From Candidatus Bathyarchaeota archaeon (GTDB lineage Archaea; Thermoproteota; Bathyarchaeia; Bathyarchaeales; Bathycorpusculaceae), in assembly GCA_963770935.1 (NCBI GenBank), contig CAVYRJ010000011.1, positions 105,382 through 169,381 of the forward strand: a stretch of 64,000 nucleotides of DNA, read 5' to 3'. The translations under genes and the position numbers were made by a program. Positions 37,858 to 62,753 of the stretch are shown in pieces (position 1 is the first letter of the stretch; each line of letters starts with the position of its first letter). The notes beneath the pieces are model-generated. The model made no database searches and was not told where the DNA came from. It saw only the letters and a list, made by a program, of their open reading frames with translations.

Positions 37858-38286
37858 TTGAATTTCAAGCTCAGAAGAAATAAATCATTATTTATTATCG
37901 TTATACTGATAGTTGTTTGGATTGTTATCTCGACGTTTATTTTATTGAACACTTCGATCGTCAGGGCACAGATAAATGGTGTAGACGGTTTAATAATGAA
38001 TTCAACTTTATCTTTATCTGGCATCTTTCTCGCAGTAATAGGCATACTGCTCGCCATCTATTGGTCAAACGCCTTGTCGGCTGAAATAAGAAGATCAATC
38101 AAGATGCTGTTAGTTGCAATAACTACTTTAACTGTTTTGAGCGGTGTAACATGCTCAGTCGCTTTTGCAGGGTTACTTTTTGAATCTCAAGACGTGATAT
38201 TACCATTGGTTTTTCTCTTCTTTTCAACAATATACTTTTTCATTACAAGCACAGTAATCCTAGTGTGGATTTCAGTAGGCAGGTAA
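37858..38286 (+). CDS. 4-TM membrane protein
   Basis: hydrophobic ORF, first gene of a tight three-gene run. Confidence 0.65.
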   Translation: MNFKLRRNKSLFIIVILIVVWIVISTFILLNTSIVRAQINGVDGLIMNSTLSLSGIFLAVIGILLAIYWSNALSAEIRRSIKMLLVAITTLTVLSGVTCSVAFAGLLFESQDVILPLVFLFFSTIYFFITSTVILVWISVGR

Positions 38287-38292
38287 AATGGC

Positions 38293-38592
38293 TTGATAGC
38301 CCTTAACAAAGTGCAAAGGGAAATTTTTGCGAATCGTTATGAACTAAGAAAATACTTGGAACCTAACCAGATACGCTATAAGGATCTAACGAAAGATCTT
38401 CACGAAACACTTCTAAAGAATTTAAAAGTTAAAAAACTCAGCGAGACCTATCTAGTCAACATTCTTCACCAAGCACTAAGTGAAGATGATCGCCTAATCC
38501 AATACATAAAAAATCAGAAACCTCTTCCTCCTCAAGATGATATAGAAGGAATAGTTTTTGCAGTTGCTTACCTAGTTTCGGGAATTGGATAG
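38293..38592 (+). CDS. hypothetical protein
   Basis: 99-aa ORF tightly packed in the run. Confidence 0.6.
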   Translation: MIALNKVQREIFANRYELRKYLEPNQIRYKDLTKDLHETLLKNLKVKKLSETYLVNILHQALSEDDRLIQYIKNQKPLPPQDDIEGIVFAVAYLVSGIG

Positions 38593-38609
38593 TCAGGGAG
38601 GTTCAAACT

Positions 38610-39772: not shown

Positions 39773-40178
39773 ATAAAAAAAGAATGCGAGTACATCTTTC
39801 ATAGATATTTACAAACTGTAACAACATATTATTTCCAACAACTCGTCGATTGTCCGTACGACATATTCTTTATTTGTTTGAATAATTGCACAAAACTGAA
39901 AGGCTTTATTGTCTTCAGTCTTGTACAACACATGAAATCTTTGTTCATGCATCTTTCTTTATATCTGGCACTTTCAATTTAGTTTTTTTTGTCGTCGCCT
40001 TTTAGTCTTTGTGGGACCTGCTCAATCTTTCGTTGGAAGTCTGAAGTTCATTCTGCTTCTATTATCAATTTCACCATTAGTTCTTTGAATATACCCAAGA
40101 AATAAATCTCCAAACATCACATTTCCTCATCCAAACTCTATTATAGTACTAAAAAAAATATTCAGTCTATAGTTCTCT

Positions 40179-41974
40179 TCAAAAAATCTCAAGTTTGGGA
40201 TAACCTATAGTACATTCTGGTAGAGCAATAAAATTTTCATAAAGCCACGGTTCACTTGGTTGATTCTTATGTTCAATTACCAAACCATAACTATCACTAT
40301 TTATCCGGTTCCTCTTTGTATCCGCTTTAAGCAGACTTTTAATCTTTGGCAAATCTAACAAAACTGGCTTAGTTCGCCATCTCCCCCGCGCCATAGAAAG
40401 TGCCTCTATTTGTTTCGTAAACAATGTATGCTTGATATCTTGTCGTGTTCTAAGTTCTGTTATTGAACCATCAGCTAATTTCAAAAAATCTTCATAGAAA
40501 TACTGCCAGCCATGACGCCCGACAGCGGACTCACCTTCTCCTTTTAAGATGTATGTTTTGGCTCGGAAAAACGATAAATCTCCTTTGCCTTTGACATCCA
40601 TCACGACAGGAATTGAGTGTTCTCCGTCGCTTAATTCAAAGTGTTTTCCAGCCATATCCTCTTCTGTAAAGATCGAGTCAGTATCCATTGCATAGATTCT
40701 TCCAGTGCATTTATCGAAAAGTCGGCTCATGACCGCATGTGAACTCGCCAGCACAGTTGAATAAGCTGGAAAGTTGGAAGTTCTCGCGATCGGATGCGAT
40801 TGACCTGTTTTCCACTTAGACTATTTAAGACGGCTTTACCGAACATGTTCTCGTTTTCAGATTGTTTGCCTTCGATCCGTTTTAGGAGCATATCGGCGTA
40901 TTTTTCATGTATGTTTGAGCGTTTGAAAATCGGTTTGTAAGCATGTGCAATTGAAAGAATCTCAGCTTTAGCTGCAATAATATCGAATGTGTGATAAAAG
41001 CCACTGATGATTCCTGTCGCATAGAAATTATTGGTGCCACGCAAAGGCAAGCCCCAAAGATCGTTCTCTGTTTTGAAAACGCCTTCCACCCAACCGTAAT
41101 TGTGGTCATCAAGTGCTACATCTTTATCTGTATTTAATTCGCCAATTTTGCAAGATTCTGCTCCTACAATATCGAGCGCTCTTGAACCAACCAAACAAGT
41201 GGGATACAAAGATTTTACATCTTTATAGGTCACGTTCGGAGAAAAACCTGTTATGAATCCTTCGCTACGACCTGCAAAGCAACAGCTCTTGATTAATCGT
41301 TCCAACGGTGGCACTGTAACAGTACGTTTAATACGCATCAAACGACGTGGTAACTCAAAAGTATCTCGCGCTAAAGTTCCAGCGCTCGCATGGTCAACTG
41401 GATTCGCCCCAAAACTTTCATCTAACCATTTCACAATTCTGGCTGTAATAACGGCGTCCGCCGCAGCATACTCGACAAAATCTCGGCGTTCTTTTTCGTT
41501 TTGCCATCCACGTAAACCAAGCCACTCTGGTTTTGCCAGCTTTGGATAACCCACGATTTCACCCGCATCAGCTAATCGGCGCACTCCAAAATTCTGCAGC
41601 AACGGTCTTACGTCGTACACATCCGCATTGAAACCTCGAAACGAAATTTTGCCAATCGTCTTAACCCCGCGCGTTTTATACTTAACATGGTTTGAGCCCA
41701 GCAACTCTTCAATCGAACCAAGATCGGGCAAAATAACGAAACCATACAATACTTTGATGAAACGATGACCAATCAACCAATCTTTCAAGTCACCCGCGTT
41801 CTCCAACACAACGGTATTTTCTGAAACGCCGTTTGAGAATTGGACACTTTGAACATCTTCAGGCGCATTAACCCTACCCGACATTAAAAATTCAGAATCA
41901 AAACCCCACGCCGAACACAATTTGCCCTGCTTTTTTGCCTTAACAAAATTTTTGCCGTAAGTGTGGTTGTCCAT
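40179..41974 (-). CDS. polB: family B DNA polymerase, protein-primed-like, ~600 aa (one frameshift in an A-run ~40810)
   Basis: ExoI FDSE, ExoIII YAAAD, FAGRSE, motif A DVKSLYP, motif B KAVLNSLSGK, motif C YAMDTDS, KTY. Confidence 0.9.
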
Positions 41975-42863
41975 ATATACACCTTAAATAGAAACTTGTT
42001 TTCTGACGACATTCTAGTTTGTTTTACTGTTTTAAGCTCATTTACGGTGTATTCGGTATAGTCGCGCTTTTGCTTTAATGCGACTATATACTTTTACACT
42101 CAAAAGTGTAATCGCCAAAAAACTTGAATTTCTAATTTTTTAGAATCCACTCGTTCAAATTTCTTTTAATTCAATTATTTTTTTTAATCATTCTTTAACA
42201 GGTAAATCAATTTTTAGTTTTAATATTTGAGTGGGTTCGGCGGAAATCTGAGTATAAGTATTCTTCTTTTTTTGTTGGATCAAATGCACACTGGCAGAAA
42301 GCAGGATCAGTGGTCTTTTCGAAGTAAATTTTTCTCTGCCCAGATTGGCTGCATTTCTTGCATTCCAAATAGAAAAATTGTACTGCGCCAAAACTGTCTA
42401 TGCTGAATTGGTAGTTGGGTACAAAATGGCTCTTTATTTCTAAAGTGGTCTGATGTTCTAAGTGACTTTGAATCTAAAGGAGTCACAAAAAGTGAAGTTG
42501 CGCGGGCGGTTTTGTTAGCTGCTTGTCATACAGCTAATTCAAATGAAATGATGATTTGGACAAAAGTCCGTGCTGCGTTTTTGCATAAACGTACCATTGA
42601 TGAAAAACAAAAAAAGCTGATACATGAAACAGATTGGTTGCTGTTAAATAATTTTACTTTCATCTTTTTTGATATACTTTCAATTTTTAGTAATATGGAA
42701 GTTTTACATATGTCTGAAACCTCGCTGTCAATTTTTAGAATAGCTGTCGATTATAAAGTTGAACAGTCTCAACGAATTCAAACTGAACTAATTAATTTCC
42801 TAAACAAGTTCAAGACGGCTAATACCCAAATAAAACAAAAAACTCGTCAGGTGTTTAGAAATA

Positions 42864-43139
42864 ATGAAGACAATTTGTTCAGTATGTGGAAAAGAAGGGT
42901 TCCTTCAAGTGCGTGGCAAGAGTCGGCGTGTCGGTCACTATAGAGGTTTTAAAGGTAAGACTCGCGTGGTTGAGTGGCATGCTTTAACGGCAGAAGTGGT
43001 AATCAATAAGAAAACGGTAATCAATAAGGAAGAAAAGAATAAGCTATTTTTGAACCGTTTTGGAGAAACTCGGAGAGAGTTGGAGCCTTCGGCGGGATTT
43101 GGACCCGCGACCATTACCTTACCAAGGACCGGAAAATAG
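42864..43139 (+). CDS. integrase N-terminal part, element A (Zn-finger-like)
   Basis: CSVCG..G...H...H; reads att as LEPSAGFGPATITLP, the same frame as int(C) at att copy 1. Confidence 0.8.
   Translation: MKTICSVCGKEGFLQVRGKSRRVGHYRGFKGKTRVVEWHALTAEVVINKKTVINKEEKNKLFLNRFGETRRELEPSAGFGPATITLPRTGK
43080..43127 (+). repeat. att copy 2 (junction of elements A and B)
   Basis: 48 bp identical to 54873-54920. Confidence 0.95.
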
Positions 43140-43147
43140 GAGACCAA

Positions 43148-43975
43148 TTGAACTTTGCGACCTTTAATTGGGTCGAATTTAGTAAATTTGTCCACGGGAA
43201 GTACGCAAAATCTAACGCACCTAAAGTAATGAGTTACTCAAAACGATATTTTTACTTGCTTGAAACAGGGGATATCGGAAAAATTAACTCCTTTCCACCA
43301 ACTATCAAGACCGATGTCATCAAGTGCCTAATCATAGTCACCAAGTATATGGGTCTCCATGAACAATTCAAAGCTGCACTGAAAAGCTATGGAATAAAGG
43401 TAAGCCGACCAGACGCTTTCGCCGCCTTTCTTCGACTCTACAACAACCACAGCAGCAACTTGGACGAATGGTTTGCCAAAGTTGAGCCAGTACTAACTCA
43501 ACAAGAAAATTTGCTCCTTAGGTTTTTACGGTTGACTGGACTTCGAGCAAACGAGGGAATCACCAGTTTTAACAAGATAATTGAGCTTTCAAAGCAAGGA
43601 AAATTAAGCGATTACCTGAACAGTGAACTTGGAATCCTGGAGCATTTTCGATACAAAGCAGATTTCTTGCGGGGAACGAAGAATGCTTTCATCAGCATTG
43701 TGCCTGAGAGTATTATCGACGAAATCTCAAATAGCCAACCCGTAACTTACGCAGGAGTGATTAAGAAATTACAGAGACGCAAGATTCCCAGTCGAATCAG
43801 CGAGTTACGCGATTACTACGGCACTTTCATGATTAAGCACGGGCTCGTTGCTCAAGAAGCCGATTTGCTCTGCGGTAGAATTCCACCCAGTATATTCGTC
43901 AGGCATTATTTTTCTCCAGCAATAAAAGAACTTAGAGACAGAACACTGCGAGCCCTGAATGAAATGGTCGAATAG
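43148..43975 (+). CDS. SSV1-type tyrosine integrase C-terminal part, element B
   Basis: TGLRANE, LEHFRY, LRGTKNAF, ELRDYY, GRIPPSIFVRHY; homologous to 33777-34663. Confidence 0.9.
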   Translation: MNFATFNWVEFSKFVHGKYAKSNAPKVMSYSKRYFYLLETGDIGKINSFPPTIKTDVIKCLIIVTKYMGLHEQFKAALKSYGIKVSRPDAFAAFLRLYNNHSSNLDEWFAKVEPVLTQQENLLLRFLRLTGLRANEGITSFNKIIELSKQGKLSDYLNSELGILEHFRYKADFLRGTKNAFISIVPESIIDEISNSQPVTYAGVIKKLQRRKIPSRISELRDYYGTFMIKHGLVAQEADLLCGRIPPSIFVRHYFSPAIKELRDRTLRALNEMVE

Positions 43976-44093
43976 GCTCAATCCAGCGGAAGGTTATCCG
44001 AAGCGCATACGCCATGAATTCAATCATTTGTAGTAAAAGGTTGGAAAACTGAATTCCGCAGTCAGTGACCAAGAAAAATGCTTTATACAAAGA

Positions 44094-45584
44094 ATGTTCA
44101 TAATGGTCACTGTGCTTACAATTCTTCATTTATCTGATTTACATCGATCGCCGATCGCTCCAGTATCAAACGACATGTTGATGTCTTGTTTGTTGCAGGA
44201 CTTGGAAAAACAAAAATCGGAAGATCCAGTCATTCCCGCCTGTGATGTAGCGGTGATAACTGGCGATCTTATAATGGGGGTAGAATATGATGACGCCAAT
44301 TTTTCTGAGACTTTTGCCTCTCAGTACCGCGAAGCAAAGAGTTTTCTTATTCGGTTAAGTCAAGAATTGTTTGCTGGAAACATAGGTAGGATATTTGTCA
44401 CGCCGGGAAATCATGATGTATGTTGGCAGATTTGTAGACAGTCTATGGAATCCATAGAAACAACTGGTCGAATTGATGTATCGCGCCTCCTTGAAGGAGT
44501 AAATAGTCCGTATCGATGGTCTTGGGGCGATTTGCGTCTTTATCGCATTAGAGACTTCGATATTTACAAATCTCGACTTAGATATTTCAAGGAATTTTTT
44601 GACGATTTTTACAAAACACATGGCTACACATTTAATCTTGAAGATAATGAACAGGTAAATAATTTTGTTACGGAAGACCAAAAAATGCTGTTCACCGGAT
44701 TTAGTTCATTATATGGAAATGATTGCTTCGACCATCGTGGCAGGATTTCATCTGACTGCGTCGCTAGAAATGGATTGAGGATGAGAAAATACGAAACGGC
44801 TAACATTCCAGTGAAAATCGCTTTTTGGCATCACAGTTTAGAGAGTTCAGGATATGGGGTTGATCACTTGAATCGTGATGAAGTTCTGCCTTTATTGATT
44901 GATCAAGGATACACGCTAGGACTCCATGGGCATCAGCACAAAAGCGGAGTTGTTTCTTTTGCTTATCATTTAAATCCTGAGGGCTTTATGCCAGTAATTT
45001 CCAGCGGTTCCCTTTGCGCAGATCAATACTCAATTCCTCAAGGATACCGAAGGCAATATAACTTAATTGAAATAAATGAAGTAGAGTGCAAAGCGAAGAT
45101 TCACGTAAGGGAATGGTTTGATAACACTAGATTAGTTTCCGCAAGACTTCACGAATTCGGAGGAAAAGGTTGGATAGTAAAGGATCTTCCTTTGCTTAGA
45201 GACGAAATCAAGAGGAAGTCACAGATCTTGGAGAAAACTTTACCATTAGTTGACAAAGCAGAATTGCTCTTAAGAGAAAAGAAGTATGAAGATGCTCTTG
45301 GTTTGTTGAAAAAACTGCCACAAGATATGCCGATAGTTCGGAGCCTTCTAGTCGAAACTCTGCACTCACTTGCAAGATGGGACGACATAGTTCGCTTGAT
45401 TTCGAAACCTTTGAATCCCAATGAGCTTTCAGTTGTAGTGAATGCTCTGTGCAGAAAAAAAGATTTTGAATCGGCAAATTTGTTTATTCGAGAATGTGAG
45501 CGAGATCAGTTGACTTACGACAAGATATTCATCAATTTGCTTTGGAAAAGGGTTGAAGCGGAAAAAGAAGTTGCCTTGAGGTAG
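44094..45584 (+). CDS. calcineurin-like metallophosphoesterase with C-terminal TPR-like helices
   Basis: HLSDLH, TGDL, PGNHD, WHH, HGHQH. Confidence 0.88.
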   Translation: MFIMVTVLTILHLSDLHRSPIAPVSNDMLMSCLLQDLEKQKSEDPVIPACDVAVITGDLIMGVEYDDANFSETFASQYREAKSFLIRLSQELFAGNIGRIFVTPGNHDVCWQICRQSMESIETTGRIDVSRLLEGVNSPYRWSWGDLRLYRIRDFDIYKSRLRYFKEFFDDFYKTHGYTFNLEDNEQVNNFVTEDQKMLFTGFSSLYGNDCFDHRGRISSDCVARNGLRMRKYETANIPVKIAFWHHSLESSGYGVDHLNRDEVLPLLIDQGYTLGLHGHQHKSGVVSFAYHLNPEGFMPVISSGSLCADQYSIPQGYRRQYNLIEINEVECKAKIHVREWFDNTRLVSARLHEFGGKGWIVKDLPLLRDEIKRKSQILEKTLPLVDKAELLLREKKYEDALGLLKKLPQDMPIVRSLLVETLHSLARWDDIVRLISKPLNPNELSVVVNALCRKKDFESANLFIRECERDQLTYDKIFINLLWKRVEAEKEVALR

Positions 45585-45591
45585 AACAAGA

Positions 45592-47901
45592 ATGAAATTT
45601 CAAATTGAAATAACCAAAATCTTGGAAATCCTTTCAACAAAAATTTATGATTCTCCCTTTGCACTTCTTAGAGAAAATGTGCAGAATGCATACGATGCTG
45701 TGTTGTTAAGAAAGCATCGGACTCCCGACGAGTTTTCACCGCGAATTGACGTGAAAATTATGCCTGGTTCTGTTGAAGTCCGAGATAACGGTATTGGGAT
45801 GACAGTTGATGATCTGAGAAACCATTTTTGGCGTGCGGGAGCCAGCGGAAAGAATAACGTCGAAGCCATTTCAGCGGCAGTTGTTGGAACTTTTGGAATA
45901 GGTGGGCTCGCCGATTCGGCGTTTGCCAAAAGTCGACTGGTCGTCACAGAATCTGCGAGTAATAATACGCGAACAAGGTGCCAGGCTACTAAAGACACTC
46001 TTTCGTTAGATCAAGATTGCATTTCGATGGAAATCTTACGCGACTTAATGATCCTGGAACGATACGTCTCGCCGAACCTCCTGCTGGACTAGATATCGGT
46101 TAAGCAGGCAATTGACTGATCTAAAAACTTTTGTTGAACATGTGCCAATACCTATCTTTGTAAATGATGAGCAAGTCAGTATGAAACCTCTTGAATACTC
46201 TTGCCCGATTCGAGATGGCATTACTTGGTCAACGTAGATCCAAGCAAAATAATCAACTTCCTTGGAATGTGACTTGAAAGTCTGAAAATTCAGAGAGCGG
46301 AATTTCCGCCTGGATTCTAATGGGAAAACATTAAGTCTAGGTGGCAATTTGATAGAGCTACGCGCTTCGCTGAGCAAGGAATTCGGAAATAAATAATGAC
46401 TTTCCGAGTGGCTTTGGATCGTCTAGGAGTGGCGTGTACTCCGTTTTATTCCTTCGGCGGCGTTGTCATCTCAAAACTTCTTCAACCAACCGCAGGATGT
46501 GATGCTGAGAATGCGCGTCCGAGTTTTGATGATTACCTCTTATAGTAGGAGACGATTGCTCCAATTGTCGCTGACTCTCCCTATACGGATATGAACACTT
46601 ATTTTATGAGTTGGGTTGCCCGAGAAGAAAGAGATTGCCTGCTAGGAAACCTGAAAGCTTCTCTTTAACAACAGGGAAGAAAATGAGCTTAAGGAAGTGG
46701 GTGAGTTGCCAAGAAAGATTTACGTTAAGTACTATAACGGTTCGCAGGAGTCCGTTGCAAAGGAACTAGGAACTGAAGAGACCTGGTTAATTCAGATCGC
46801 CAGTAGTAATCCCCGTGGTCGTTGCGAAGCTGAGTACCTTGCAGGATTTACCAATGCACATTTGGTCTCGGGTGAACCTCGCGTAACTTCATTTCGACCC
46901 GACAATTCATGGAGTCGAGACGAGGCGGCGCTGTGTTTTCAAAATAGGTCAAGTTGTAGGGTCTGATTATTTCTTGCCTGTGAAATAAGATTTGGCAAGA
47001 TTAGTCATAATTTACCTTTGCTCGTTAATGATGCAGTCACACCGCCGGTTTTAACCCGGATCCGAGCAATAGCACAATTCAAACTTTACTTCAGTGCTAT
47101 AGTGCTGATTTTTTGGTTTTCAATTCTTACGTAAAAGACTTCGTGCGAACTATTGTTTTCCCACGTATTGCACAACTTGTGCCGAGCAGCACCAGAGGAG
47201 GCGCTGAAGCCTTTCTGAGCATTTTGCGAAGACAAAAAGAAGCATTTGAATATGATCAATCTGAGATAAGGCAGGTGGATGATGTCATCGCAGACTTTGT
47301 AAAAGGATCAGGGACGTAACCGAGGCAATTGATGCAGCATTAGCCGCAGCTAGAAAGCAGAAACAAGTAGTTTCCGTTAGCGATGTCAAAACAGTTACAT
47401 CAATAATGCCTGATATTGTATCAAATCAGCAAGTGCTTGAGGTGGAAGAGGAAAAAAGTAGGGGAATAAACTATTCAGCTTTTCCCCCGAGACCGGCAAT
47501 AATTTCGAATGACGTTGAGACAGATGCAAAGAGACCAGGATTAGAAGATTCAGAAATCGATGTTTGGTTATAAAGGTCTTCTCTGTTTATCTGAGAAAGC
47601 TTATGGCGATAGAGCCGAATTCTTCTATCAACCGCATTATACAGAAATTATTTGGGGTGGTCAAAGAATTATCTTCATATTTCGCCATCTTTCTGGAACT
47701 TTTGGATTCTATTATGATGTAGAACTAAACTAGTTAATGGCTATTCCATCCGGCGGAGCAAGTTACGAAACCATGACGCTAGTTCTAAAAAACTCTGTAT
47801 TCCTACCCATTCCGTCAACTCTTTTTCAATGCTTCGCCCCTCATAAGAACGAGAAAAAGAAATTCGATGTCAGATACGATCTTTTATACCCAGAATCCTA
47901 A
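45592..47901 (+). pseudogene. HSP90-like GHKL ATPase, ~770 codons, multiple disruptions
   Basis: IY....LRENVQNAYDA, DNGIGM, GTFGIG; coding-like fragments continue to TAA 47899. Confidence 0.75.
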
Positions 47902-48149
47902 ACGTAATAACTTTCATTTTCTTTTTCATTCTCAGTCGATAGCATTATTGGTGCAGGAGTACGCAGAGCCTTTGAAATATGTCTCTTGTTAATTTGAGGT
48001 CCTTTTGCCAATCCGACATTTTTAACTATAACTCCAATAAATTTTTTTGAGACATCTTCGGGCTTAACTTACTCATCGGTCTAACCCTCCCAAATTGGTT
48101 TAAAGGAGAGAGACAAATTGAGATCCTTTTCGAAAGCATCAAAATGCAA

Positions 48150-48255
48150 CTTTGTGGCAGGATTCCGCCAAGCATATTCGCGAGGCATTATTTTTCTCCA
48201 GCCATAAAGGAACTTAGAGAACGAACGTTAAAAGCTTTGGAAGAGATGGAGATTG
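48150..48255 (+). pseudogene. orphan 3' end of a third integrase
   Basis: LCGRIPPSIFARHYFSPAIKELRERTL matches the int(C)B C-terminus with mostly synonymous differences. Confidence 0.85.
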
Positions 48256-48505
48256 AAGCAATAAAAAATGGCTATGGGCAAAATTCTAACGGAGGTGATT
48301 GGGGATGCTTGCAGGTGAAGACTTGTACGAAGCAATTATAACAGAACGGCTCTCTCGCTATCGCTGGCGCAAAAAACGAAATGGATGAGCTCTATTTTCT
48401 AATACAATTACCTAAATAGAAAAAGGGTCTTAAAGAGTTGGGTAAGATTAATACTGTTAGAACAACTAAAAGACTGGTCAGTGAACTAATAAGGTCTGAC
48501 TAATC

Positions 48506-49453
48506 GTGAGTAAATCAAATGCAGATAGCAATCATTCAAAAAATGAGGATTGGAAGACAAAATTTGTACAACGTAAAATGAAAGAAAGCGGCTATCAATT
48601 AGAGGATTCCGTTTACTCCATATTTTCAAAACACTTACCTGACTGTGAGATTGAGCAGAATCATCACTTCTCTGATTGGGAGACAGGTAAAGACAGAGAA
48701 ATAGACCTAAAAATTACTTACTCAGTTACTGTCCCATCAATTTTTATAGAATATGTTTTTCTTATTGAATGTAAGCAACTTCCAGATAATTTTTGGACTT
48801 TCGTGCGAAGCCGGCAGCAGCGCATGGTTTTTAAAAATTCAATTTCGATTTGGGATCATGTTGGAATAGATGGACGTCAGGAAAAAGTAGTGGATATTTT
48901 GGATCCAATTTTTAAGGTAAACAAGATTGTTTGCGATTCATATGCTCAAACCTATAAAGAATTTTTGCCAGACATAGCTAAAGGAAACCCTGACAATATT
49001 AAATCCAACAATCGCACGGACAACATAAGAACCTCGGAAATTGAATTAGCTAAGGCTTTCTATTTTGAAAAAAGGGAAGCTTTGCAACAAGCAGAAATAG
49101 GGCGGGTATTGGAAGACATTGTCGATAATATTCAGATATTTTACCCTATGATTATTTTTCAAGGTAACTTATTTGAAGCAAATATGCAATCTGACCCGCC
49201 CGAGGTGAGGAGCATAGGAAGTGCTCATCTAAATCACTTCTCAATTCAGGATAAAGAAAATATCAGGATGGTTATTGATGTAGTCCATATTGATAGCTTA
49301 GAGCAGTTTATCGACAATCAAATACTTCCTGAAATCGCGCGGATTAAAGAGAATAGTTCAAAATTGTGGGAATCTTACAAATCTCAAGTAAAATCCCTAA
49401 GACTACGATATAATCGCGGCGAGATCAAATACTCGAAAGACTCACTTTTCTAG
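48506..49453 (+). CDS. PD-(D/E)XK restriction-endonuclease-fold protein
   Basis: SGYQLE..V, DREIDL, LIECK. Confidence 0.75.
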   Translation: MSKSNADSNHSKNEDWKTKFVQRKMKESGYQLEDSVYSIFSKHLPDCEIEQNHHFSDWETGKDREIDLKITYSVTVPSIFIEYVFLIECKQLPDNFWTFVRSRQQRMVFKNSISIWDHVGIDGRQEKVVDILDPIFKVNKIVCDSYAQTYKEFLPDIAKGNPDNIKSNNRTDNIRTSEIELAKAFYFEKREALQQAEIGRVLEDIVDNIQIFYPMIIFQGNLFEANMQSDPPEVRSIGSAHLNHFSIQDKENIRMVIDVVHIDSLEQFIDNQILPEIARIKENSSKLWESYKSQVKSLRLRYNRGEIKYSKDSLF

Positions 49454-49535
49454 CTCAACGAATCAATCTCACTAAAAATAGAAATAGACTCTAAAATTTG
49501 TTTAAGTGAGCGATCAACACTGAAGGGATCACCCC

Positions 49536-51080
49536 TCATATTAAGAGTTTATAGAGCTTGTCTATCTTGTGTTGATCAACTTTTCCTTCGCATGTTGGTA
49601 TTAACTTGAGTAAGTATTGCCTTGCTTTAAAAGAACCGTATATTTGGCTATTCAGCTAGCGCGAAATCTACTATTCTTGAGCAATCGTTAGATGACAGGG
49701 AAGTCTTGATATTTTGAATTATTTCCGCGTTAGTCCCTGCGATATCAAAACAGTCACTTCGTCCAAATTCGGCCACAAATTCACCTTTATTTCTCGCCGC
49801 GATTTCTTTCAAGTCTGGCGACCTTGAGAGCTGTGCAACGATTTCAAGAATCGCTGATTTGCACATCGGTGTGGCTGTCTCAAAATACCACTTTAGAAGT
49901 GACTCAAACAATTGAGCGCCTTCTTCTCGGTCTCTTTCGAGAATGGCTTCTTTTAGAAAAATGAAAACGTTTCTGTTATCTTTCGAGTTGCTAGATAAAT
50001 CAAAGAGTCCCACCGCTTCTAGCAAATCGGCGTAGGCTTGCTTGAGAACGGAATATTCCATGTCTTTAATCGTTTGAAGAATTGCGGGTTCATCCAGTGG
50101 TTGTATTGAGTGGATTGTTCCCTGAAGTATGCTCCTTCTTGATTCTCTTCCTTTGGGGAGTTGAATTGGCGGCCTCACTGTTGGAGGCGCTTGCCCACCT
50201 GGTTTAACGACTTTCAATACTTCTTGGACAATAAATGCAATACCTTTGCTAGTTGGGATTCCATGATGCCAGCTAGAAGCAATGACTTGCTTCGAATGAA
50301 GGCAGCATTAACATTATGCCACACCGGCAGGATGACTTTTCTGCCTTCGATTTCTTTTGCAACAAGTCCTTCAAGCTCCCTTTGCGGCCAATCTTTTTTG
50401 AAAAAATTTTCGCTAAGGATTACTATACCATAACCTGATTTAGCAATACCTTCATCTATTGATTTATGAAGTCGGTCTCCAATTTTGATTTCCGATTCAT
50501 CATACCAAACCTTTAGTCCAGCCGCTGTAAGCGCATCTCTTAAAGGTCTTGCAATTGAATCTTTATCTTCCGAGGCGTGACTTATGAATACGTCCCAAGT
50601 ATCATCTGTCCTTTGCGTCGTGATCTTTCCCTCTTCCACTTGTTCGGTCACTATCTTTGGCTTAGAACGCGATATATTTGTCTTTTGAATTATCACTTTA
50701 TTTGCTGGGTATCCGTATGCCTTAGAGCGGAATTTTTCTCTTGCAGCTTTATTTTTTGCCAACTGAAGAATTTTGTTTTTGTTTGATGAAAATAAATCCA
50801 CCTTAATGAAGGTTAGTTCGCCTTTACTTCTATTCACCTCTATTAAATCTCGACTTTTCAAAGCATGGGTTACATCAAGAACACGTTTTGAAGTAATTTT
50901 ACACCCTGGTTTTAGCGTATTAAGATTCAGCGCGATTTCTTTTGCTGTTTTCCCACTGCTTTTATTTCGGTAGATTTCTTCAAAAACGTCCTGCTTATCT
51001 TCAGATCCGCTGAGGAAGTCTGCCGCTTTAATAATTTGCATGTCTCCATACGTTCTAACGTCGGCTGTACCAATTACCAT
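49536..51080 (-). CDS. wHTH-TIR-helical domain protein (frameshifts ~50260 and ~49650)
   Basis: DVFISHASEDK, VWYD, W.QRE catalytic Glu, LPVWH; restored frame continues GIPTSKGI... and NSQIYGSFKA. Confidence 0.85.
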
Positions 51081-51081
51081 T

Positions 51082-51276
51082 TTACGATTTGCCCTTCTTT
51101 GTTACTCCAGGATAAGGTTTAACCTTGCCAAACTTGGTTCTAATATTTCCTGCACCCATTCCAGTTGCCAAATCAATTTCTTCGGATGTGGCTCCGCTTT
51201 TCAAGAGTTGAATAATTAATAAATTTTTTATTGATTTTAGCTCCTTCAACGAATCTTTATCTTTTTCTAAACTCAC
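51082..51276 (-). CDS. small HTH protein
   Basis: L.SIKNLLI..L...GATSEEI..ATG.....I; 1-nt gap to the TIR gene. Confidence 0.7.
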   Translation of the reverse strand: MSLEKDKDSLKELKSIKNLLIIQLLKSGATSEEIDLATGMGAGNIRTKFGKVKPYPGVTKKGKS

Positions 51277-51288
51277 CCATCAACCCTC

Positions 51289-51711
51289 CTACATCTCTGG
51301 TTTTGATTTTTCGGTCATTGTTTTTCCCATAGCCTTATGGATCTCAATTCCAAAATCTTCAAGGGAGAAAAGACTTTTTCCTCGGGTTCCACCTTGTACA
51401 CCAACTTGTTCAGCTATGCCCACTCTTGTCCACTTTTTCCAGTTCTCAGATACATCAGCTGGGTACATTCCTGAACGCTCAAATAATTCTTTAGTCGTTC
51501 TTTTACCGTCTGAACTCGAATATACAATTTTTTGTGATTCAGATCGTACTTGCTCACTTAATATTTTGCCAACCTCGGCATGGCTGGTTACTTTAATCCA
51601 TTTGGTGAGTTCTTGAATTGATGAAATCATTTGTTCTGTTTTGATTGACTGTTTATTTAGCGCATCCACTAATTGTTCTTCTATTGGCCGAGTGTCCTTC
51701 TTCTTACTCAT
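51289..51711 (-). CDS. coiled-coil + wHTH protein
   Basis: IVY..SDG..T..E....G...VS..W..W...G; paralogous to neighbours. Confidence 0.75.
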   Translation of the reverse strand: MSKKKDTRPIEEQLVDALNKQSIKTEQMISSIQELTKWIKVTSHAEVGKILSEQVRSESQKIVYSSSDGKRTTKELFERSGMYPADVSENWKKWTRVGIAEQVGVQGGTRGKSLFSLEDFGIEIHKAMGKTMTEKSKPEM

Positions 51712-52081
51712 CGGTCGCATCTCCATCTTTTGGAAGCCCTTTGATTGTTGGAACTTGGATCCCGATTGATTTAAGAGAAACTACCCGCTTGAATCGCCCT
51801 TGTGTCCCTGCGGGCATCACAATGGGTACAGTCGCCCATCTTTGCCACATATTTTTAACTGTCTGATGAGTAATCTGCATCCCAGTGCTGGATACAATTT
51901 GAGCAATGTCCCGTGTACTTTTGTCACCTTTTGAGAGTTCATAAACAAGCCTGTCTACATCATCCCTTAACGTTGCTGCTACCATTTTGGTAAATGTCGT
52001 CCATACCGAGAATTTTACCCAAAATGTAAGTTCCTCGATTTTTGCATTCAAATCTTTCGTTTTTTCATCCAAATTACTCAC
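51704..52081 (-). CDS. coiled-coil + wHTH protein
   Basis: LVYELS.G..S.RDIA......TV..MW..W. Confidence 0.75.
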   Translation of the reverse strand: MSNLDEKTKDLNAKIEELTFWVKFSVWTTFTKMVAATLRDDVDRLVYELSKGDKSTRDIAQIVSSTGMQITHQTVKNMWQRWATVPIVMPAGTQGRFKRVVSLKSIGIQVPTIKGLPKDGDATDE

Positions 52082-52383
52082 TCCAAGCTTTTGAAGTAGT
52101 ATTTCTTTCCGCCTTTTTCTTCATAAAGAACTAACCCGAGTTCAAGAAGGCCTGAAAGATGTTGTGAAACATTAGGTTGAGTGGTCATGAGTTCAGAAGC
52201 AATGTCGCCAACTGTGTGTTTGTTATCACAGAGTTCATAAATTTTTTTCTTAGTTTCGGTCTTCAAAATGCTATCCTTTGCTTTCATAATTGCTTCGCCG
52301 TTGGCAAGTTTTAAAACTGAAAGTATTTTCTGCAAAAGTTGCTTAATCTCAATGTCATTTTGATCCATTTGATTCTCAAGCAC
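52078..52383 (-). CDS. ArsR-like wHTH protein
   Basis: IYELCD...TVGDIA.EL..TQPNVSQHL..L...GLV. Confidence 0.85.
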   Translation of the reverse strand: MLENQMDQNDIEIKQLLQKILSVLKLANGEAIMKAKDSILKTETKKKIYELCDNKHTVGDIASELMTTQPNVSQHLSGLLELGLVLYEEKGGKKYYFKSLE

Positions 52384-53019
52384 CCACCTAACCTATTGAT
52401 TAATTGTGCTTATAATGTTTGTGATATTTCAGGATGTCAAGTTACTCATTAAGATACTAACTTAGATCTATTTTACATTTTGTTAAATTTCTAATAATTT
52501 TAGAGTTTTTGTAAAGATTATAGATATATACAATAAATTGAAGATATATGTAATGATAATGATTGTCTACGAGCTATGAAGGTCTCGTGAAGATATTGTT
52601 AAATTATAGTGACGAATTACTCACTAAGAATTTTTTTGCCTCCAAATCAACCAAAAAAGCATCATTTTAATAATTAACTAGCCTACTCATCAATGTCAGT
52701 TCCAATTGTCTTATAAGATCATATCAATACGCTCATTGGTTCATTAATGGTTAAGCGATGTCAATATATTATATTTTACAAATCCTGAGATTAGCAATTT
52801 TTTAACATCAATTTACCTATTTTTTATGCGTTAGAATCAGACATCTATGTTTGTCATAAGGTTGTGGAATGATTAAGATAAAGAAGATCCTAACTGAGAT
52901 TTTCACATAAGGCGCTATTATGTAGGCAATGCTCGATAAACCCCATAGTCGGTGTACCTCTAATCAAAACTCAAATTTTATCAGAATATTTTAGAAAAGA
53001 TTTTTGGACACAACCTTGT

Positions 53020-53713
53020 GGGCAACTGGTGACCGGACGGAATAACATTTCTGCCTCTGCGGAATTTTTGGTTAACTGGAAAGTACCCGTCAAACCGGTG
53101 ATGTAATTATCACCAGCGATTGGGTGCTTACTTGCTTGGATAATATGATTTAACTCGCTTAACTCAAATTGGGAGCCTTTCCTCAGATCGACGGAGAACT
53201 GGCCGAGGTCCCAAAAACGAGTTAGACGAGTCAAAGGACAATAAAAAACGTGAGGAAATTAATAACTTATAATAGTGTCATGATCATGGACGTTTTCGGG
53301 GCCATTACAATTAGCCCGGGTCCCCGTGATTCTCGTTCATATTGTTGCAGGGTGGCAACTTGGCGCGGAAACACCTGAAAAGGAGCTCAATTTGTCTCTC
53401 TCCTATAAACCGTTTTTGGAGGATCAACCCTATTAAGAACTCAAGCCTGAGGAAACTCCAAAAGTGGTTTATACGAGTTAAATGATTTGCCTAAATCGGG
53501 GTCTAATTAGTGTCTCTCGAGGACACAATGAACGTAGAATAGAAGAAAGCGCAAGACTTAGGAAGCCTAAGGGAGCCTTCCATGGCACCGATTTTTAACA
53601 TAACAGTTCAGACGTTCATTAACCGAGTTCAAATTGCTTTCTGAAAATCTTGAATCAATTTATAAGCCGAGTTGAGTTAGCAAAGGCAAAGTGAAAAAGC
53701 AGTCGTATTGCCC
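53020..53713 (+). ncRNA. candidate large structured non-coding RNA (~700 nt)
   Basis: many helices found by eye with G-U wobbles on the + strand, e.g. 53404-21/53456-73, 53026-32/53110-16, 53527-35/53612-20; ends inferred from 53020-25/53708-13. Confidence 0.55.
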
Positions 53714-53743
53714 CTCAATTTAGTTTTAATAAACATTATTTGT

Positions 53744-54340
53744 CTAACTGGATAAATCCCCTTGCTTCTTCTGTAACCCGCGCAGCTTCAAAAAAGAATA
53801 TTCTTCTTCTTGCCGCTTCAATTCGGAATCCAAAATATCTCGTATCTTGTTAAAATAAAAACAATCGAAAAGTGTACTGTTTGGGAGTGCGTCTGGAGAT
53901 ATGGCGATGTTCGGAGTTTTTTTGCGCTTGGGATCCTTAAAATATTCTACCACTCTATGTACCGGAATAAGCGCTTGTGTAGTGTTTTCTCCAAGCTTGT
54001 CAAAACCGGCTAGAAACAGGAAATTTCCGGATTCACTGTAAAACGCTTCATTGAGTTTATTTTCCTTTTCATCTTTGACACACCATCGCCAGCTACTTTC
54101 AGCCACAGGCGTCGAGCCTTTAACCTGAATATCTATTTCCGCGTGTTCTTTCCTATAAACATAGTCTACCCCAATATTATCTGCGGCTCTTGTTGCACCG
54201 ATTAATCTCCAATCCAAAAGGATCATTGTTTTTTCCAATAAATTCGTTGCAAGGCCGTCCGTTTTTTCGCTGTCTTCTGGTTTCTTGGATGGTGTCCTGA
54301 GAAGTAATCGCGGGGTGTGATGTTTAGGTAATTTCTCCAT
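53744..54340 (-). CDS. PD-(D/E)XK-fold protein (DUF4365-like)
   Basis: E...DNIGVD...IQVKGS. Confidence 0.6.
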   Translation of the reverse strand: MEKLPKHHTPRLLLRTPSKKPEDSEKTDGLATNLLEKTMILLDWRLIGATRAADNIGVDYVYRKEHAEIDIQVKGSTPVAESSWRWCVKDEKENKLNEAFYSESGNFLFLAGFDKLGENTTQALIPVHRVVEYFKDPKRKKTPNIAISPDALPNSTLFDCFYFNKIRDILDSELKRQEEEYSFLKLRGLQKKQGDLSS

Positions 54341-54364
54341 TTATTTTTGATCTCCTTTGAAACT

Positions 54365-54532
54365 TTACTCATCTATTTTCTCGACAATTAACTTATCCCC
54401 ATTAATCCTAACTTTCACTCGGCTCGGAATATGGAAAGGGAATGCGCTATCAAGCATTAAATGGCTCGGCAGATACAAAATTCCAGTCGAACTTTTGGAT
54501 GATTTTTCGATTTTTGTAGTTCCTTCTATCAT
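54365..54532 (-). CDS. AbrB/SpoVT-like small DNA-binding protein
   Basis: TG.LYLP.....DS.FPF....VKV.I.GDKLIVE. Confidence 0.65.
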   Translation of the reverse strand: MIEGTTKIEKSSKSSTGILYLPSHLMLDSAFPFHIPSRVKVRINGDKLIVEKIDE

Positions 54533-54645
54533 GTTTTGCAAGTCCTTATGATATAACATAATTCGTTCTTTATAAGATATACTATAAAATATATTATAAG
54601 ATAGTATTAAATATGTGTGGGGGCTAATATTATTCGGCGAGAAAA

Positions 54646-54939
54646 ATGCTTAGCAAAACTGAACAGGAATATCTGAGAAATCCATTGAGCTTCAACCCAG
54701 ATTATGCAAAAGTGCTCAAAAGTCGCGTCACAGCTAAGGCACGTGCATTCAATGAAGATCTGAACTTGTTATCATCGGCTGGATTAGTTACTCAGAATTG
54801 TAACCAAGTTACAGGATTTAGTAACCAAAGTTTGGGTTTAGATCAGTCTCTATTAACAAATCAGGGGCAAAATTGGAGCCTTCGGCGGGATTTGGACCCG
54901 CGACCATTACCTTACCAAGGTAACGCCCCACCGGACTAG
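54646..54939 (+). CDS. putative integrase N-terminal part, element B (runs into antisense tRNA)
   Basis: position equivalent to int(N) of element A; reads att as WSLRRDLDPRPLPYQG. Confidence 0.55.
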   Translation: MLSKTEQEYLRNPLSFNPDYAKVLKSRVTAKARAFNEDLNLLSSAGLVTQNCNQVTGFSNQSLGLDQSLLTNQGQNWSLRRDLDPRPLPYQGNAPPD

Positions 54940-54950
54940 GCTACGAAGGC
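54874..54950 (-). tRNA. tRNA-Thr(GGT)
   Basis: cloverleaf GCCTTCG/CGAAGGC, anticodon arm TTACC-TTGGTAA-GGTAA, T arm GCGGG-TCCAAAT-CCCGC, encoded CCA. Confidence 0.95.
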
Positions 54951-55340: not shown

Positions 55341-55428
55341 GCAGGGGTCTCCAAGCCAGGTCAACGGAGTAGGGCTTAGGACCCTATCGCGTAGGCGTTC
55401 GTGGGTTCGAATCCCACCCCCTGCACCA
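55341..55428 (+). tRNA. tRNA-Leu(TAG)
   Basis: GCAGGGG/CCCCTGC, TAGGG-CTTAGGA-CCCTA, long variable arm, TTCGAAT, CCA. Confidence 0.96.
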
Positions 55429-56463: not shown

Positions 56464-57495
56464 TTAAAACTCTTCCCCACTAATGGACTGCAATTCATTT
56501 TTATAGTTCTCTCGAACGAATTTTGCAATTCCCTCTGAGTCAAGCCCATATTTTTTCATAAGTTCAAGGGGTTCTCCTGATTCGCAGAAAATATTTCTTA
56601 TCCCATGCCGCTTTAATGTGCATGGGGTCGACTTTCCTAATTCGCTTAAGACTTCTGCAATTGCTCCTCCGAGTCCACCTGTTATTTGATGGTCTTCAAC
56701 GCTAATTATCAGGCCGGTTTTTTTTGCCCAAAATTTGATCGCATCTTCATCAATTGGCTTAATTGTATGACAATCAATTACTGCACACGAGATTCCTTCG
56801 GATTCAAGTTTCTCTGCTGCAATTATTGACTCATATACTTGTGGTCCGCATGCAAAAATTGCCACATCTTCTCCGTCCCGGTAAATATTTGCCTTTCCAA
56901 TTGTGAATGGTGTTAAATGTGTAGTAAATGAAGGCATTTTCTCTCGACATGACCTAATGTAAACTGGATTTTTTGTTTTGCTTGCATCAATCGTTGCTTT
57001 TCTTGCCTCTTCAACATCTGCTGGAACAATGACTGTCATATTCGGAAGAACTCTAGTAATTGCAATGTCTTCTAATGCTTGGTGAGATGCACCATCTGGT
57101 CCAACTGTTACTCCCGTATGTGAACCGTGTAATTTTACTGGCACATTATTATAACAAAGTGAAACACGAATCTGATCCCAATTTCTTCCAGGCGAGAAAA
57201 CCCCGTACGCAGAGATAAAAACCGTTTTCCCCGAAGAAGCAATTCCTGCAGCAACTCCTGCTAAATTCTGCTCAGAAACTCCAACTTGAACAAATCGATC
57301 TGGATACTTTTCCGCAAACCAATGCGTTCTCGTACTTTCAGAAACATCGGCAGTCAATACCCAAAAATTTGGATTTTCAGCTCCAATCTCAACTAATGCT
57401 TTTCCAAATCCATCCCGACTTGGTTTCTTATTCTGAGGAGCATCAATATTTTCGATCAGCCCCATTTGCTTATTTATTTTTGATGAATTTACCAT
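56464..57495 (-). CDS. transketolase C-terminal subunit
   Basis: GVSEQN, GPDGASHQALED, TIKPID, EDH...GGLG. Confidence 0.93.
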   Translation of the reverse strand: MVNSSKINKQMGLIENIDAPQNKKPSRDGFGKALVEIGAENPNFWVLTADVSESTRTHWFAEKYPDRFVQVGVSEQNLAGVAAGIASSGKTVFISAYGVFSPGRNWDQIRVSLCYNNVPVKLHGSHTGVTVGPDGASHQALEDIAITRVLPNMTVIVPADVEEARKATIDASKTKNPVYIRSCREKMPSFTTHLTPFTIGKANIYRDGEDVAIFACGPQVYESIIAAEKLESEGISCAVIDCHTIKPIDEDAIKFWAKKTGLIISVEDHQITGGLGGAIAEVLSELGKSTPCTLKRHGIRNIFCESGEPLELMKKYGLDSEGIAKFVRENYKNELQSISGEEF

Positions 57496-57534: not shown

Positions 57535-59145
57535 CTAATCCCTCTTTGCATTTCCGTAGAACTTTCGTTCCTTTTCAAGATCTTCTAAGGCTGTTATTGC
57601 TTCTTTATCTCCCGGCGATTTTCCGTGCCACTCGGTAATAAATTCCATGAATGAGATATCTTTTCCAGGCACGGTATGTGCGATTATCATTGTTGGTTTA
57701 TCGATTATTGTTTTCGCTTCGTTACACGCTGAAATAATTTGTTGAATATTATGGCCATCGATACTAATTACGTTCCATCCGAATGCTCTATATTTTTCTT
57801 CAAGTGGTTCAAGTGGAAGAACATCTTCAGTAAATCCATCGATTTGAATATTATTTCGATCCATAATTGCAACTAAATTTCCGAGTTTAAATTTAGATGC
57901 TAAAAGTACCGCTTCCCATATTTGTCCCTCGTTATGCTCACCATCTGAACAGACACAGTAAACCCGCCAACCCTTTTTTTCTCTCTTTCCAACAAGTGCC
58001 ATTCCAACTGCGATCGAAAGTCCCTGGCCAAGAGGACCTGAACAATTCTCGATTCCAGGTAATGATTCTCTATGAGGATGCCCTTGTAGTCTTGATCCCA
58101 ATTTTCTAAGCGTCATTAACTCTTCTTTTGGGAAATATCCTGCCTCAGACATCGTAGCATATAGTCCCGGACAAACGTGTCCGTTTGATAATATAAGTCG
58201 ATCCCGACCTTCCCAATTCGGATTTTTTGGGTCGTGGTTTAAAACATTAAAGTAAAGTGCTGCAAAAACGTCGGCTAAACCCATCGAGCCTGCTGGGTGA
58301 CCTGATTTTGCTGCGTGAAGCATGTTAACAATACTTATCCTAATATTATTTGATAGTAAATAGAGTTTCTGTATATCGGAAATTTTTTTTGCTCCAACTC
58401 CAACCGATGAACTTAGCACAAGAAGCGTTTGTTTTGGAGGTTCGCTAATAAGTTTTGGTGCTTCAACTTCCATAGTTGTTTTCTCCGAATAAATTTGCCA
58501 TTTATTTCGACCTCGTATTCCCGACTCGTAGATATTCTGAACTGCATCTGGAATACTTTTTGCCATAAAAATTGCACTCGATGCCGCAAGAATATTTGCT
58601 CCAGCTATACTAGCACTCTCGGAAGTTACGGGATTTATTCCCCCATCAACTTCAATTTCGAGATCTGGAAATTTCGCTCGAAGAGCCTTGATTTTGGATT
58701 CGACTTCAGCAATATACTTTTGACCGCTATAACCAGGGTTAACGGTCATAATTAGAACTTGCTTAATGCCTTTATCATTGATATATGGATAAAGTTTTTC
58801 GATTGGTGTCGGCGGGTTAATTGCAAGACCTATCCTTCCACCGGAAGCGCGTGTTTTTTCTATTTCACTCCAATCAAAAATAGTCTCAACATGAATTATA
58901 TGCCTATGTTTTCCAGGCACTTTTGAAATCCAATTTTCAGGATCCTTAACCATCCAGTGGAATTCGTAAGAGATTCCTAAGGGAAGATTTGTTAAACTCT
59001 CAAGTCCAATGGTATTATTAGGGACAAAAACATTGTCCATGATGTCTATATGAACAGTTGTAACGCTTGGCTTAACTTTTTCAATCTGAGCTATCAATTC
59101 TTCTCTGCTTTTTACTAAGATTGCGGGTATTACTTCAACGTCCAT
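57535..59145 (-). CDS. fusion of ribulose-phosphate 3-epimerase and transketolase N-terminal subunit
   Basis: HIDIMD, MTVNPG.SGQ, EVDGGI, then SGHPAGS, SNGH, LQGHP, GPLGQG, SDGE..EG in one open frame. Confidence 0.9.
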   Translation of the reverse strand: MDVEVIPAILVKSREELIAQIEKVKPSVTTVHIDIMDNVFVPNNTIGLESLTNLPLGISYEFHWMVKDPENWISKVPGKHRHIIHVETIFDWSEIEKTRASGGRIGLAINPPTPIEKLYPYINDKGIKQVLIMTVNPGYSGQKYIAEVESKIKALRAKFPDLEIEVDGGINPVTSESASIAGANILAASSAIFMAKSIPDAVQNIYESGIRGRNKWQIYSEKTTMEVEAPKLISEPPKQTLLVLSSSVGVGAKKISDIQKLYLLSNNIRISIVNMLHAAKSGHPAGSMGLADVFAALYFNVLNHDPKNPNWEGRDRLILSNGHVCPGLYATMSEAGYFPKEELMTLRKLGSRLQGHPHRESLPGIENCSGPLGQGLSIAVGMALVGKREKKGWRVYCVCSDGEHNEGQIWEAVLLASKFKLGNLVAIMDRNNIQIDGFTEDVLPLEPLEEKYRAFGWNVISIDGHNIQQIISACNEAKTIIDKPTMIIAHTVPGKDISFMEFITEWHGKSPGDKEAITALEDLEKERKFYGNAKRD

Positions 59146-60072
59146 CTGGATCAACTGTTAAACCTGAATTTTTTTACCGTTTGCCATTATGGCTCGCCAA
59201 TTTTTTGAGCACGCGTGTTACAAAATGGATGCCACTATCTATTAAGCCTTCATTAATGAAGCCACCAAATTTTATCCATGGTCATTGATGTTTTGAATGC
59301 TTTGGACTCTGTTAGGGCTTCCAGCTCTTTTCACCTTTTCTTCTGCTCATGTTGTGAAAAAAAACATTGTGTAAACAATACTTTATCTAAGAAGTTGAAT
59401 CTTATGCCACTTAGAAATTACATTAGACAGTCACTTTAAAGTAAGCTTGTTATTGTTTGTTAGTATGCCGTAATATTTCAATTGGGTTTTTAACAAACTA
59501 CAGATTGGCTAATTGATTAACAGAATGCTGCTTGAGGTATTACCTAAAAAACGTATGTGTTTAGCTGTTTTAAGTTGTGTTTGATTCTGAAACATGTGTG
59601 TGCAGGGTTTCTTAGAGGAATATGCAGTGTTTTTTCTACGTTTAGAAGCTCTCTAGGGCAGCTTCCATTTAGAAGATGCAACCCACCTTTGCGGCGTTTT
59701 ATTAAAAACCCATGGAAAAAGCTTCTTTTTAAAAAACCAGCTTAAATCAAAAACAAACAAGAGAAGATGCTGCTGCTACTGCAACTTTTATTTTGCACCA
59801 GTTGCATCAATCAGACACCTGCAAAACTAACCTTCAACAATAGAAAAATCAGATATCAGCCAAAGCCAACACCGCGAAAAACGCCACACCAACCTTATAA
59901 AACCAAGTCAAAAAAACCAAGCAAAATAACGTACAGGCAGTTATCTAAACACACACAAAAAAACTAAATTATAAGCGAATTGATAAGCAACTCATCTCAA
60001 GATAAAGATGAAATAGAAAGAAATTGAGATCTGAATTATTACAACGAAATCATTAAGTATCAACTGACTAGT

Positions 60073-62730: not shown

Positions 62731-62753
62731 TTCGAATCCCACCCCCTTCACCA
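62731..62753 (+). repeat. att-like copy of tRNA-Leu 3' end
   Basis: ttcgaatcccacccccttcacca versus ttcgaatcccaccccctgcacca at 55406-55428. Confidence 0.85.

Follow-up and report, generated by a model that had tools for sequence, protein, structure and literature searches.

Two hairpins, A and B1, account for the fold stability of the non-coding region 53020-53713 (694 nt) of the window, i.e., the whole 64,000-nt stretch of DNA analysed here, and by their sequences they are diverged inverted paralogues of one ~125-nt hairpin family, A on the + strand and B1 on the - strand, lying tail to tail. An 11.8-kb element (43128-54873) has integrated at a tRNA-Thr gene, and the region makes up its non-coding portion nearest the tRNA. 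We put at roughly one half the probability that the hairpins are cis-acting on the DNA of the element, where they would serve the island recombinases as ends for recombination or insertion.

The first-pass annotation had proposed that the region is a single large structured RNA of a new class, comparable to GOLLD and ROOL. The stems on which this proposal was based can all be read in the sequence, as follows.

53026-32/53110-16, stem, listed together with gacgg/ccgtc and ttctgc/gcggaa
53160-74/53209-24, stem
53286-301/53322-40, stem
53404-21/53456-73, 18-bp stem with two G-U pairs
53557-71, stem
53527-35/53612-20, stem
53148-57/53474-83, long-range pair
53178-86/53447-55, loop-loop pair
gggcaa/ttgccc, end closure

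The annotation was also right that the region is GC-richer than the 600 bp before it (0.39-0.44, against 0.27-0.31 in 52350-52950) and that it has no credible ORF. The gap 52384-53743, which is flanked by an ArsR-type HTH gene (52078-52383, - strand) and the gene of a 198-aa protein (53744-54340, - strand), contains no ORF longer than 87 aa, and Pfam, searched at E up to 1 with 18 stop-to-stop frames from 52894-53850, returned nothing. A small ORF of 29 codons, starting in the B motif in the genus genomes G020 and G029, was rejected as a gene, since neither window copy keeps it uninterrupted, it is shifted on the metagenome locus L043, and its protein identity is only 57% against a DNA identity of 77%, as compared by eye. 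The Rfam check likewise found no family in the region: cmscan of the window at gathering scores returned two tRNAs only, and at E up to 10 the three weak matches over 52300-53800 all lie at 52595-52803, outside the region.

Folding statistics agree with dense pairing for the region as a whole but not for most of its parts. Taken whole, the 694 nt exceed dinucleotide shuffles in stability, with z = -2.30 for the + strand and z = -3.93 for the - strand; none of 20 shuffles equalled the native fold of either strand. When six parts were compared with 200 shuffles each, hairpin A (53128-53250) gave z = -2.37 (+) and -3.85 (-), and hairpin B1 (53395-53482) gave z = -4.06 (+) and -2.66 (-), whereas 53020-53120, 53280-53345, 53484-53625 and 53626-53713 ranged from +0.5 to -1.8, which is the chance level. 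The excess of fold stability is thus confined to two hairpins of ~90-125 nt. With four of the six parts at chance, the majority of the stems picked out by eye are no more than chance yields.

Comparison with relatives resolves the region into modules, the matching segments being C (53014-53073), A (53124-53326), B (53377-53482) and D (53459-53546). Together with a further B-type copy elsewhere in the window, the features are the following.

53014-53073, + strand: module C, a sequence motif with its core at ~53040-53072, recurring in G020, G090, G122, G016, G086 and L043
53128-53250, + strand: hairpin A, a copy of the ~125-nt conserved hairpin repeat (model R1), scoring 129.9 bits with R1
53264-53340, + strand: module A2, found after hairpin A in some relatives, with 72-80% identity to G016 and G065
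53377-53546, - strand: module B1/D, the B-type hairpin holding the 18-bp stem, with end motif 53377-53403 and tail D, recognised by recurrence and fold z
48055-48131, - strand: module B2, the other B-type copy of the window, inverted with respect to B1, with 78% identity over 77 nt
53547-53713, no strand assigned: unconserved remainder, folding at chance

Read in reverse, B1 shares with A the 5' flank, the arm sequences and even words of the loop, and the R1 model scores it weakly, on the - strand (22.3 bits, E 0.037). The pairings 53148-57/53474-83 and 53178-86/53447-55, which had been taken for long-range and loop-loop contacts of an RNA, are accounted for by this inverted paralogy of A and B1, and not by tertiary structure. 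Module B1/D recurs at 48055-48131 of the window and in G020, G029, G135, G016 and L043, and a sharp boundary motif (53377-53403 in the window) begins the B-type copies in all six that were aligned. The consensus fold of module B misses the 18-bp stem, of which B2, G020 and G029 have only degenerate versions. The local stem of module A2 is at chance level (z = -0.8/-0.6), and module C shows no structure beyond chance either, with an RNAalifold consensus of -1.8 kcal/mol and a sub-region z of -0.6/-0.4. As a sequence motif, C has an invariant 9-nt core with a T-rich box ~40 nt upstream in seven genomes or contigs. It occurs mostly without hairpin A, often in ORF-poor DNA, and was noted at 53014-53073 of the window and on L011, L012, L015 and L033.

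The structure of hairpin A is supported by covariation, which is observed directly in the alignments. Four copies of 53128-53250 gave a consensus hairpin of 30 pairs, 5 of which are changed on both sides, and the covariance model R1 was built from these four copies. R1 finds the hairpin in 4 of 120 genomes of the genus, the source genome included, and in 5 of 11 metagenome loci that had been preselected by sequence pattern, whereas a sample of 150 further genomes from the order gave no match. The 14 matches yield 13 distinct rows, one of them an antisense reading. In this alignment 90.9% of the cells are paired and 16 of the 30 pairs carry double-sided changes, figures that lean towards structure, given an alignment fitted to the model and copies that are mutually related, although the signal is still strong. 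None of 500 shuffled alignments reached the observed value in four of five measures (2 of 500 did so in the fifth), and sliding the 3' partners by 1-3 columns lowered the pairing to 27-54%. The copies are 65-85% identical, and double-sided pair changes persist while loops and flanks diverge. A conserved asymmetric 5' flank, more conserved than the stem, gives every copy a polarity. Taken together, the hairpin family appears to be a genuine, selected structure.

The family is confined to tRNA-linked islands with archaeal-phage-type tyrosine integrases in a few Bathyarchaeota. A limited literature search found no such hairpins in Bathyarchaeota, and within the limits of that search the family is undescribed. 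Among stretches retrieved by pattern scans, 4 of 7 and 1 of 4 were discarded as chance bacterial matches with no further similarity. In viral contigs the hairpin A pattern returned no stretch and the B-motif pattern returned two, neither of them similar to the region by blastn. The source genome has one R1 match and two B copies, all in a single island (48-54 kb of the window), and three copies with orientations +, - and - are found both on the 7-kb contig L025 and, as R1 matches, on L043. At L043:8860-9089, an R1 copy (8860-8982) is accompanied by a weaker blastn match to hairpin A (8999-9089). These copies lie beyond tRNA-Leu, by the end of a PAS histidine-kinase gene, so the family is not confined to the tRNA-Thr side.

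Conservation of the region is modular and rearranged, as can be seen directly from the matches. In its own genome the region matches only itself and the 77-nt inverted copy at 48055-48131. Of the other genomes of the genus, 13 of 119 match at E up to 0.01, mostly over short stretches of the AT-rich part or motif C, and only 5 of 119 do so below 1e-7 (G065, G016, G135, G020 and G029). What the relatives share is limited to modules of 40-250 nt, which vary in order and orientation, and 53547-53713 has no relative in its own genome, the genus genomes or the metagenome loci. The best case is L043, where C and A are colinear with the window (52985-53236) and 53378-53535 is turned round; G016 has A inverted but not C or D. 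A and B/D are both + in the window, + and - in L043, and - and + in G016. With modules mutually inverted between loci, an RNA that needs long-range pairs could not survive. The comparison of homologues upholds covariation within hairpin A and shows no conservation of the region as a unit. The modules are found at the same tRNA-Thr/tRNA-Leu locus in G016 and G029, with an integrase, and in L043, with an integrase 3' fragment only; in G135 they lie behind tRNA-Ala.

The placement of the region in an archaeal mobile element, which the annotation had also claimed, is borne out by its closest relatives, which are Bathyarchaeota MAGs, and by the boundaries of the island, which are observed directly.

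54874-54950, - strand: tRNA-Thr(GGU), found by ARAGORN and Rfam; its 3' 47 nt (54874-54920) are attR
43081-43127, - strand: attL, an exact 47-nt copy of the tRNA-Thr 3' part (blastn, 100% over 47 nt)
33732-33776, - strand: third att repeat, exact over 45 nt, the outer boundary of another element in tandem (repeat match)
43148-43975, + strand: intact integrase, 275 aa (Pfam PF16795 Archaeal phage integrase, E 3.5e-07; PHROG integrase)

The integrase starts 21 nt past attL and is 72% identical to the integrase of G020. The 11.8-kb element is the inner of two tandem elements. The second one, at the same att (33732-43127), has an integrase gene (33827-34630) that is interrupted by a stop or frameshifted, and a 415-aa ORF (40727-41974) resembling organellar/viral-type DNA polymerase B (PF03175, E 4.3e-07), a protein-primed-type fragment.

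The cargo of the 11.8-kb element looks like defence genes, judged by family matches. A six-gene operon on the - strand (49648-52383) is a candidate defence system that encodes an ArsR/Csa3-like HTH protein, three small proteins, a ThsB-like TIR protein (PADLOC PDC-S66, E 2.5e-56) and, lastly, a protein of 189 aa that weakly matches an ssDNA-binding domain. A metallophosphoesterase has weak matches to anti-phage families. A 166-aa ORF (45592-46092) corresponds only to the N-terminal quarter of HSP90-like/BbrUII-type ATPases and is followed, up to 48050, by ~2 kb with no ORF longer than 103 aa and no Pfam match; 45592-48050 is probably a decayed defence gene. The annotation had linked the region to the HTH-TIR operon or to a flanking nuclease, and neither link is supported. 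With tblastn, the TIR, HTH, 198-aa and 315-aa proteins were found in the window only and in no other hairpin-bearing locus, and the other hairpin-bearing loci carry different cargo (MrcB-like, PIN, Alba and HTH_45 proteins). The 198-aa protein (53744-54340) matches no family in Pfam, PADLOC, NCBIfam or PHROG, which leaves the label of nuclease unsupported. The tRNA-Leu flanks with and without hairpins are not alignable between loci.

Several of the hairpins adjoin 3' fragments of recombinase genes. The fragments concerned, and the full genes that precede them in the same orientation, are listed here.

Window 48144-48341, + strand: integrase gene 3' fragment adjoining B2 (tblastn: residues 241-274 of the G020 integrase, 91% identical)
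Window 43148-43975 and 48144-48341: full integrase gene, then displaced 3' fragment
G020 (L004) 1189-2031 and 434-540: full integrase gene, then displaced 3' fragment
L025 3-1088 and 1427-1844: the same layout with a recombinase-like gene
L041 13809-13931: integrase 3' fragment, on a contig that ends short of where a full gene would lie

In the window (B2), in G020 and in the metagenome loci L041/L046, a gap of 13-30 nt separates the B-type end from an integrase 3' fragment, and in these three contexts the fragments start within ~3 nt of one common codon. A full-length gene stands upstream in the same orientation in all three contexts that could be checked (window, G020 and L025). Differences at codon positions 1, 2 and 3 between fragments number 1, 1 and 12 for the window against G020, and 2, 4 and 12 and 3, 3 and 10 for the other two comparisons; the fragments differ from the full genes, too, mostly at third positions, and two of the three fragments have no start codon. 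This third-position bias suggests that each fragment belonged until recently to a gene that worked. Contig L025 encodes a 361-aa protein whose stop codon is overlapped by an R1 hairpin, and a copy of the last 138 codons of its gene follows 230 nt later, 340 nt downstream of the gene (65% protein identity), with the R1 hairpin between the two. Searches of Pfam, PHROGs and PDB sequences with the 361-aa protein were blank, and its nearest language-model look-alikes (ESM Atlas) are tyrosine recombinases. The inserts are either tiny (758-776 nt) or recombinase-free, with a hairpin in each. In G016 and G029, no integrase fragment was found beside any hairpin of the hairpin-bearing loci.

Two other arrangements were considered for these fragments and rejected. 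An integrase split in the manner of SSV does not fit, as the intact integrase lies beside the att site and not across it, and the junction of hairpin and fragment is not tRNA-like. Nor can a simple tandem duplication be the source of the fragments in the window and G020, where the DNA that follows the fragment and the DNA that follows the full gene are unrelated.

In our preferred reading as cis-acting DNA elements, the hairpins would probably fold from one DNA strand and would mark the ends or recombination points of small island segments, which the island recombinases may move, invert or insert. The annotation had argued that G-U pairs favour RNA over DNA cruciforms, and on this point the evidence is divided. 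On the modelled strand, G-U pairs do exceed A-C pairs (28 versus 13, counting one duplicate and one antisense row), which favours a single-stranded functional form, with RNA and DNA equally possible. However, only 5 of 12 independent copies fold more stably on this strand than on the other, so that no strand is singled out. Moreover, the opposite polarity of A and B1 means that no single transcript carries both in the 'right' sense. Several points weigh against the cis-acting DNA reading: palindromes may keep their pairing by intrastrand repair without any function, the hairpins of G016 and G029 have no adjacent integrase fragment, the G-U excess fits an RNA equally well, and the recombinase call on L025 is based on language-model look-alikes only.

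A more specific version of this reading, which we find doubtful, is that the B-type hairpins are the distal ends of recombinase-less segments that insert site-specifically in the 3' end of the island integrase gene. Such a segment would supply a replacement gene end, and the old 3' end would stay behind as the fragment beside the hairpin. The version is suggested by the common junction (to within ~3 nt), the full gene upstream in three of three contexts and the third-position bias. If correct, it would amount to cassette capture in archaea by an archaeal-phage-type integrase, with hairpins folded as recombination ends, and could be a route by which defence genes are loaded into tRNA islands; the putative 4.3-kb insert of the window (43865-48146) carries the anti-phage-like phosphoesterase.

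Among the alternatives to cis-acting DNA hairpins, the less probable but still serious one is that the hairpins are small (~125-nt) structured RNAs, e.g., antisense or regulatory RNAs, so that the region holds two or three small RNA genes. Compensatory changes that keep the stem, the G-U excess on the modelled strand (28 to 13), the polarity given by the asymmetric conserved 5' flank, and the lack of any overlapping ORF or protein family would all suit such RNAs. However, neither strand is consistently the stabler (5/12), the copies sit at rearrangement junctions in mixed orientation to neighbouring genes, and the conserved flank is TATA-like and seems too near the stem for a transcript to span the covarying outer stem. 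It is unlikely that the hairpins are functionless palindromic debris of decayed elements, in which intrastrand repair or gene conversion maintains the pairing, and fragile palindromes attract deletions and inversions. Decayed genes do occur in the island (the truncated HSP90-like ATPase at 45592-46092 and the frameshifted integrase at 33827-34630), stability shows no strand bias, and the family distribution is patchy and narrow; but 16 of 30 pairs have double-sided changes among copies that are 65-85% identical with diverged loops and flanks, and the 5' flank is conserved above the stem, which repair within the palindrome would not yield.

A single-strand replication origin or priming site, of a plasmid- or virus-like element that integrates at tRNA genes, is very unlikely. 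A long, imperfect and oriented hairpin of conserved structure in integrative elements would fit this role, and the neighbouring tandem element carries the protein-primed-type DNA polymerase B fragment (40727-41974). However, none of the hairpin-bearing loci yielded a replication initiator gene, and single islands contain several copies of mixed orientation. To the initial proposal of one ~700-nt RNA we give next to no credence. The region is ORF-free and GC-enriched, folds above shuffles on both strands and lies near tRNAs in a mobile element, all of which recommended it, but the stability is absent from four of its six parts, the unit is kept in no relative, the modules are mutually inverted between loci, 53547-53713 lacks any relative, and Rfam gives no match to the region at E up to 10. 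This disposes of a false candidate for a giant archaeal RNA of the GOLLD/ROOL kind, and the case illustrates that inverted paralogous hairpin repeats can mimic one large RNA.

Comparison with known systems places the hairpins among mobile-element features without matching any one of them. GOLLD and ROOL share with the region a non-coding nature and a position near tRNA genes in an integrated mobile element. Unlike them, the region has no Rfam match and no conserved multi-domain architecture, and consists of ~125-nt modules that have been rearranged. Archaeal integrated elements that target tRNA genes, with their tyrosine integrases and tandem arrays, are reviewed in PMC8371274. The island resembles these elements in its exact direct repeats of the tRNA 3' part at both ends, the integrase beside one repeat, the two elements in tandem and the defence-gene cargo. 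It differs from them in the covarying ~125-nt hairpin repeat and in the junctions between hairpins and integrase 3' fragments, and the word 'hairpin' does not occur in the passages of PMC8371274 that were consulted. MITE and REP-like repeats are similar in being short, non-coding, hairpin-forming families with sharp ends; however, the present family has about one to three copies per genome, in one island and not dispersed, and its covariation runs along the whole stem and is not limited to conserved terminal repeats.

The attC sites of integrons are recombination sites of IntI that act as folded single-strand hairpins, with the core sequences RYYYAAC / GTTRRRY and inverted L boxes. The hairpins described here are like attC in being imperfect and ~60-140 nt long, in conserving structure above sequence, in their association with a tyrosine recombinase and in their position between short gene segments. 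In most copies the 5' stem base is ATTTAAC, which fits RYYYAAC, and the 3' base ends in G, a purine, as read by eye from the alignment. In contrast to attC, the second box in each arm is a direct and not an inverted repeat, the integrases of the window, G020, G016, G029 and L042 are of the PF16795 kind and not IntI-type, and the copies are of mixed orientation (L043, L025), with no cassette array by an attI seen. No PF00589 protein was found among the ORFs scanned. The layout at the integrase gene also recalls e14 in icd of E. coli, a prophage that integrates in the 3' end of a protein gene and provides a replacement gene end. A full gene, an inserted segment and a displaced 3' fragment of the same orientation follow one another in both cases (here, the integrase of the window and G020, and L025). 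The target here would, however, be the recombinase gene of the island itself, and the inserts are tiny or recombinase-free, with a hairpin in each.

What remains is a covariation-supported hairpin family at places where island DNA was inverted or joined to the ends of recombinase genes. If the hairpins do act as recombination ends, they would reveal a way in which defence islands are put together at the tRNA genes of uncultured archaea and would offer a testable substrate for an archaeal-phage-type integrase.

We note two further features of the DNA beyond tRNA-Thr. The last 23 nt of tRNA-Leu(UAG) (55341-55428) recur at 62731-62753 with 95.7% identity, 7.3 kb downstream; this could possibly be an old att scar, though core pentose-phosphate genes intervene. 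Among the genes there, a single ORF (57535-59154) encodes ribulose-phosphate 3-epimerase joined with the N-terminal half of a transketolase; the transketolase is split, and its C-terminal half has a gene of its own (56464-57495).
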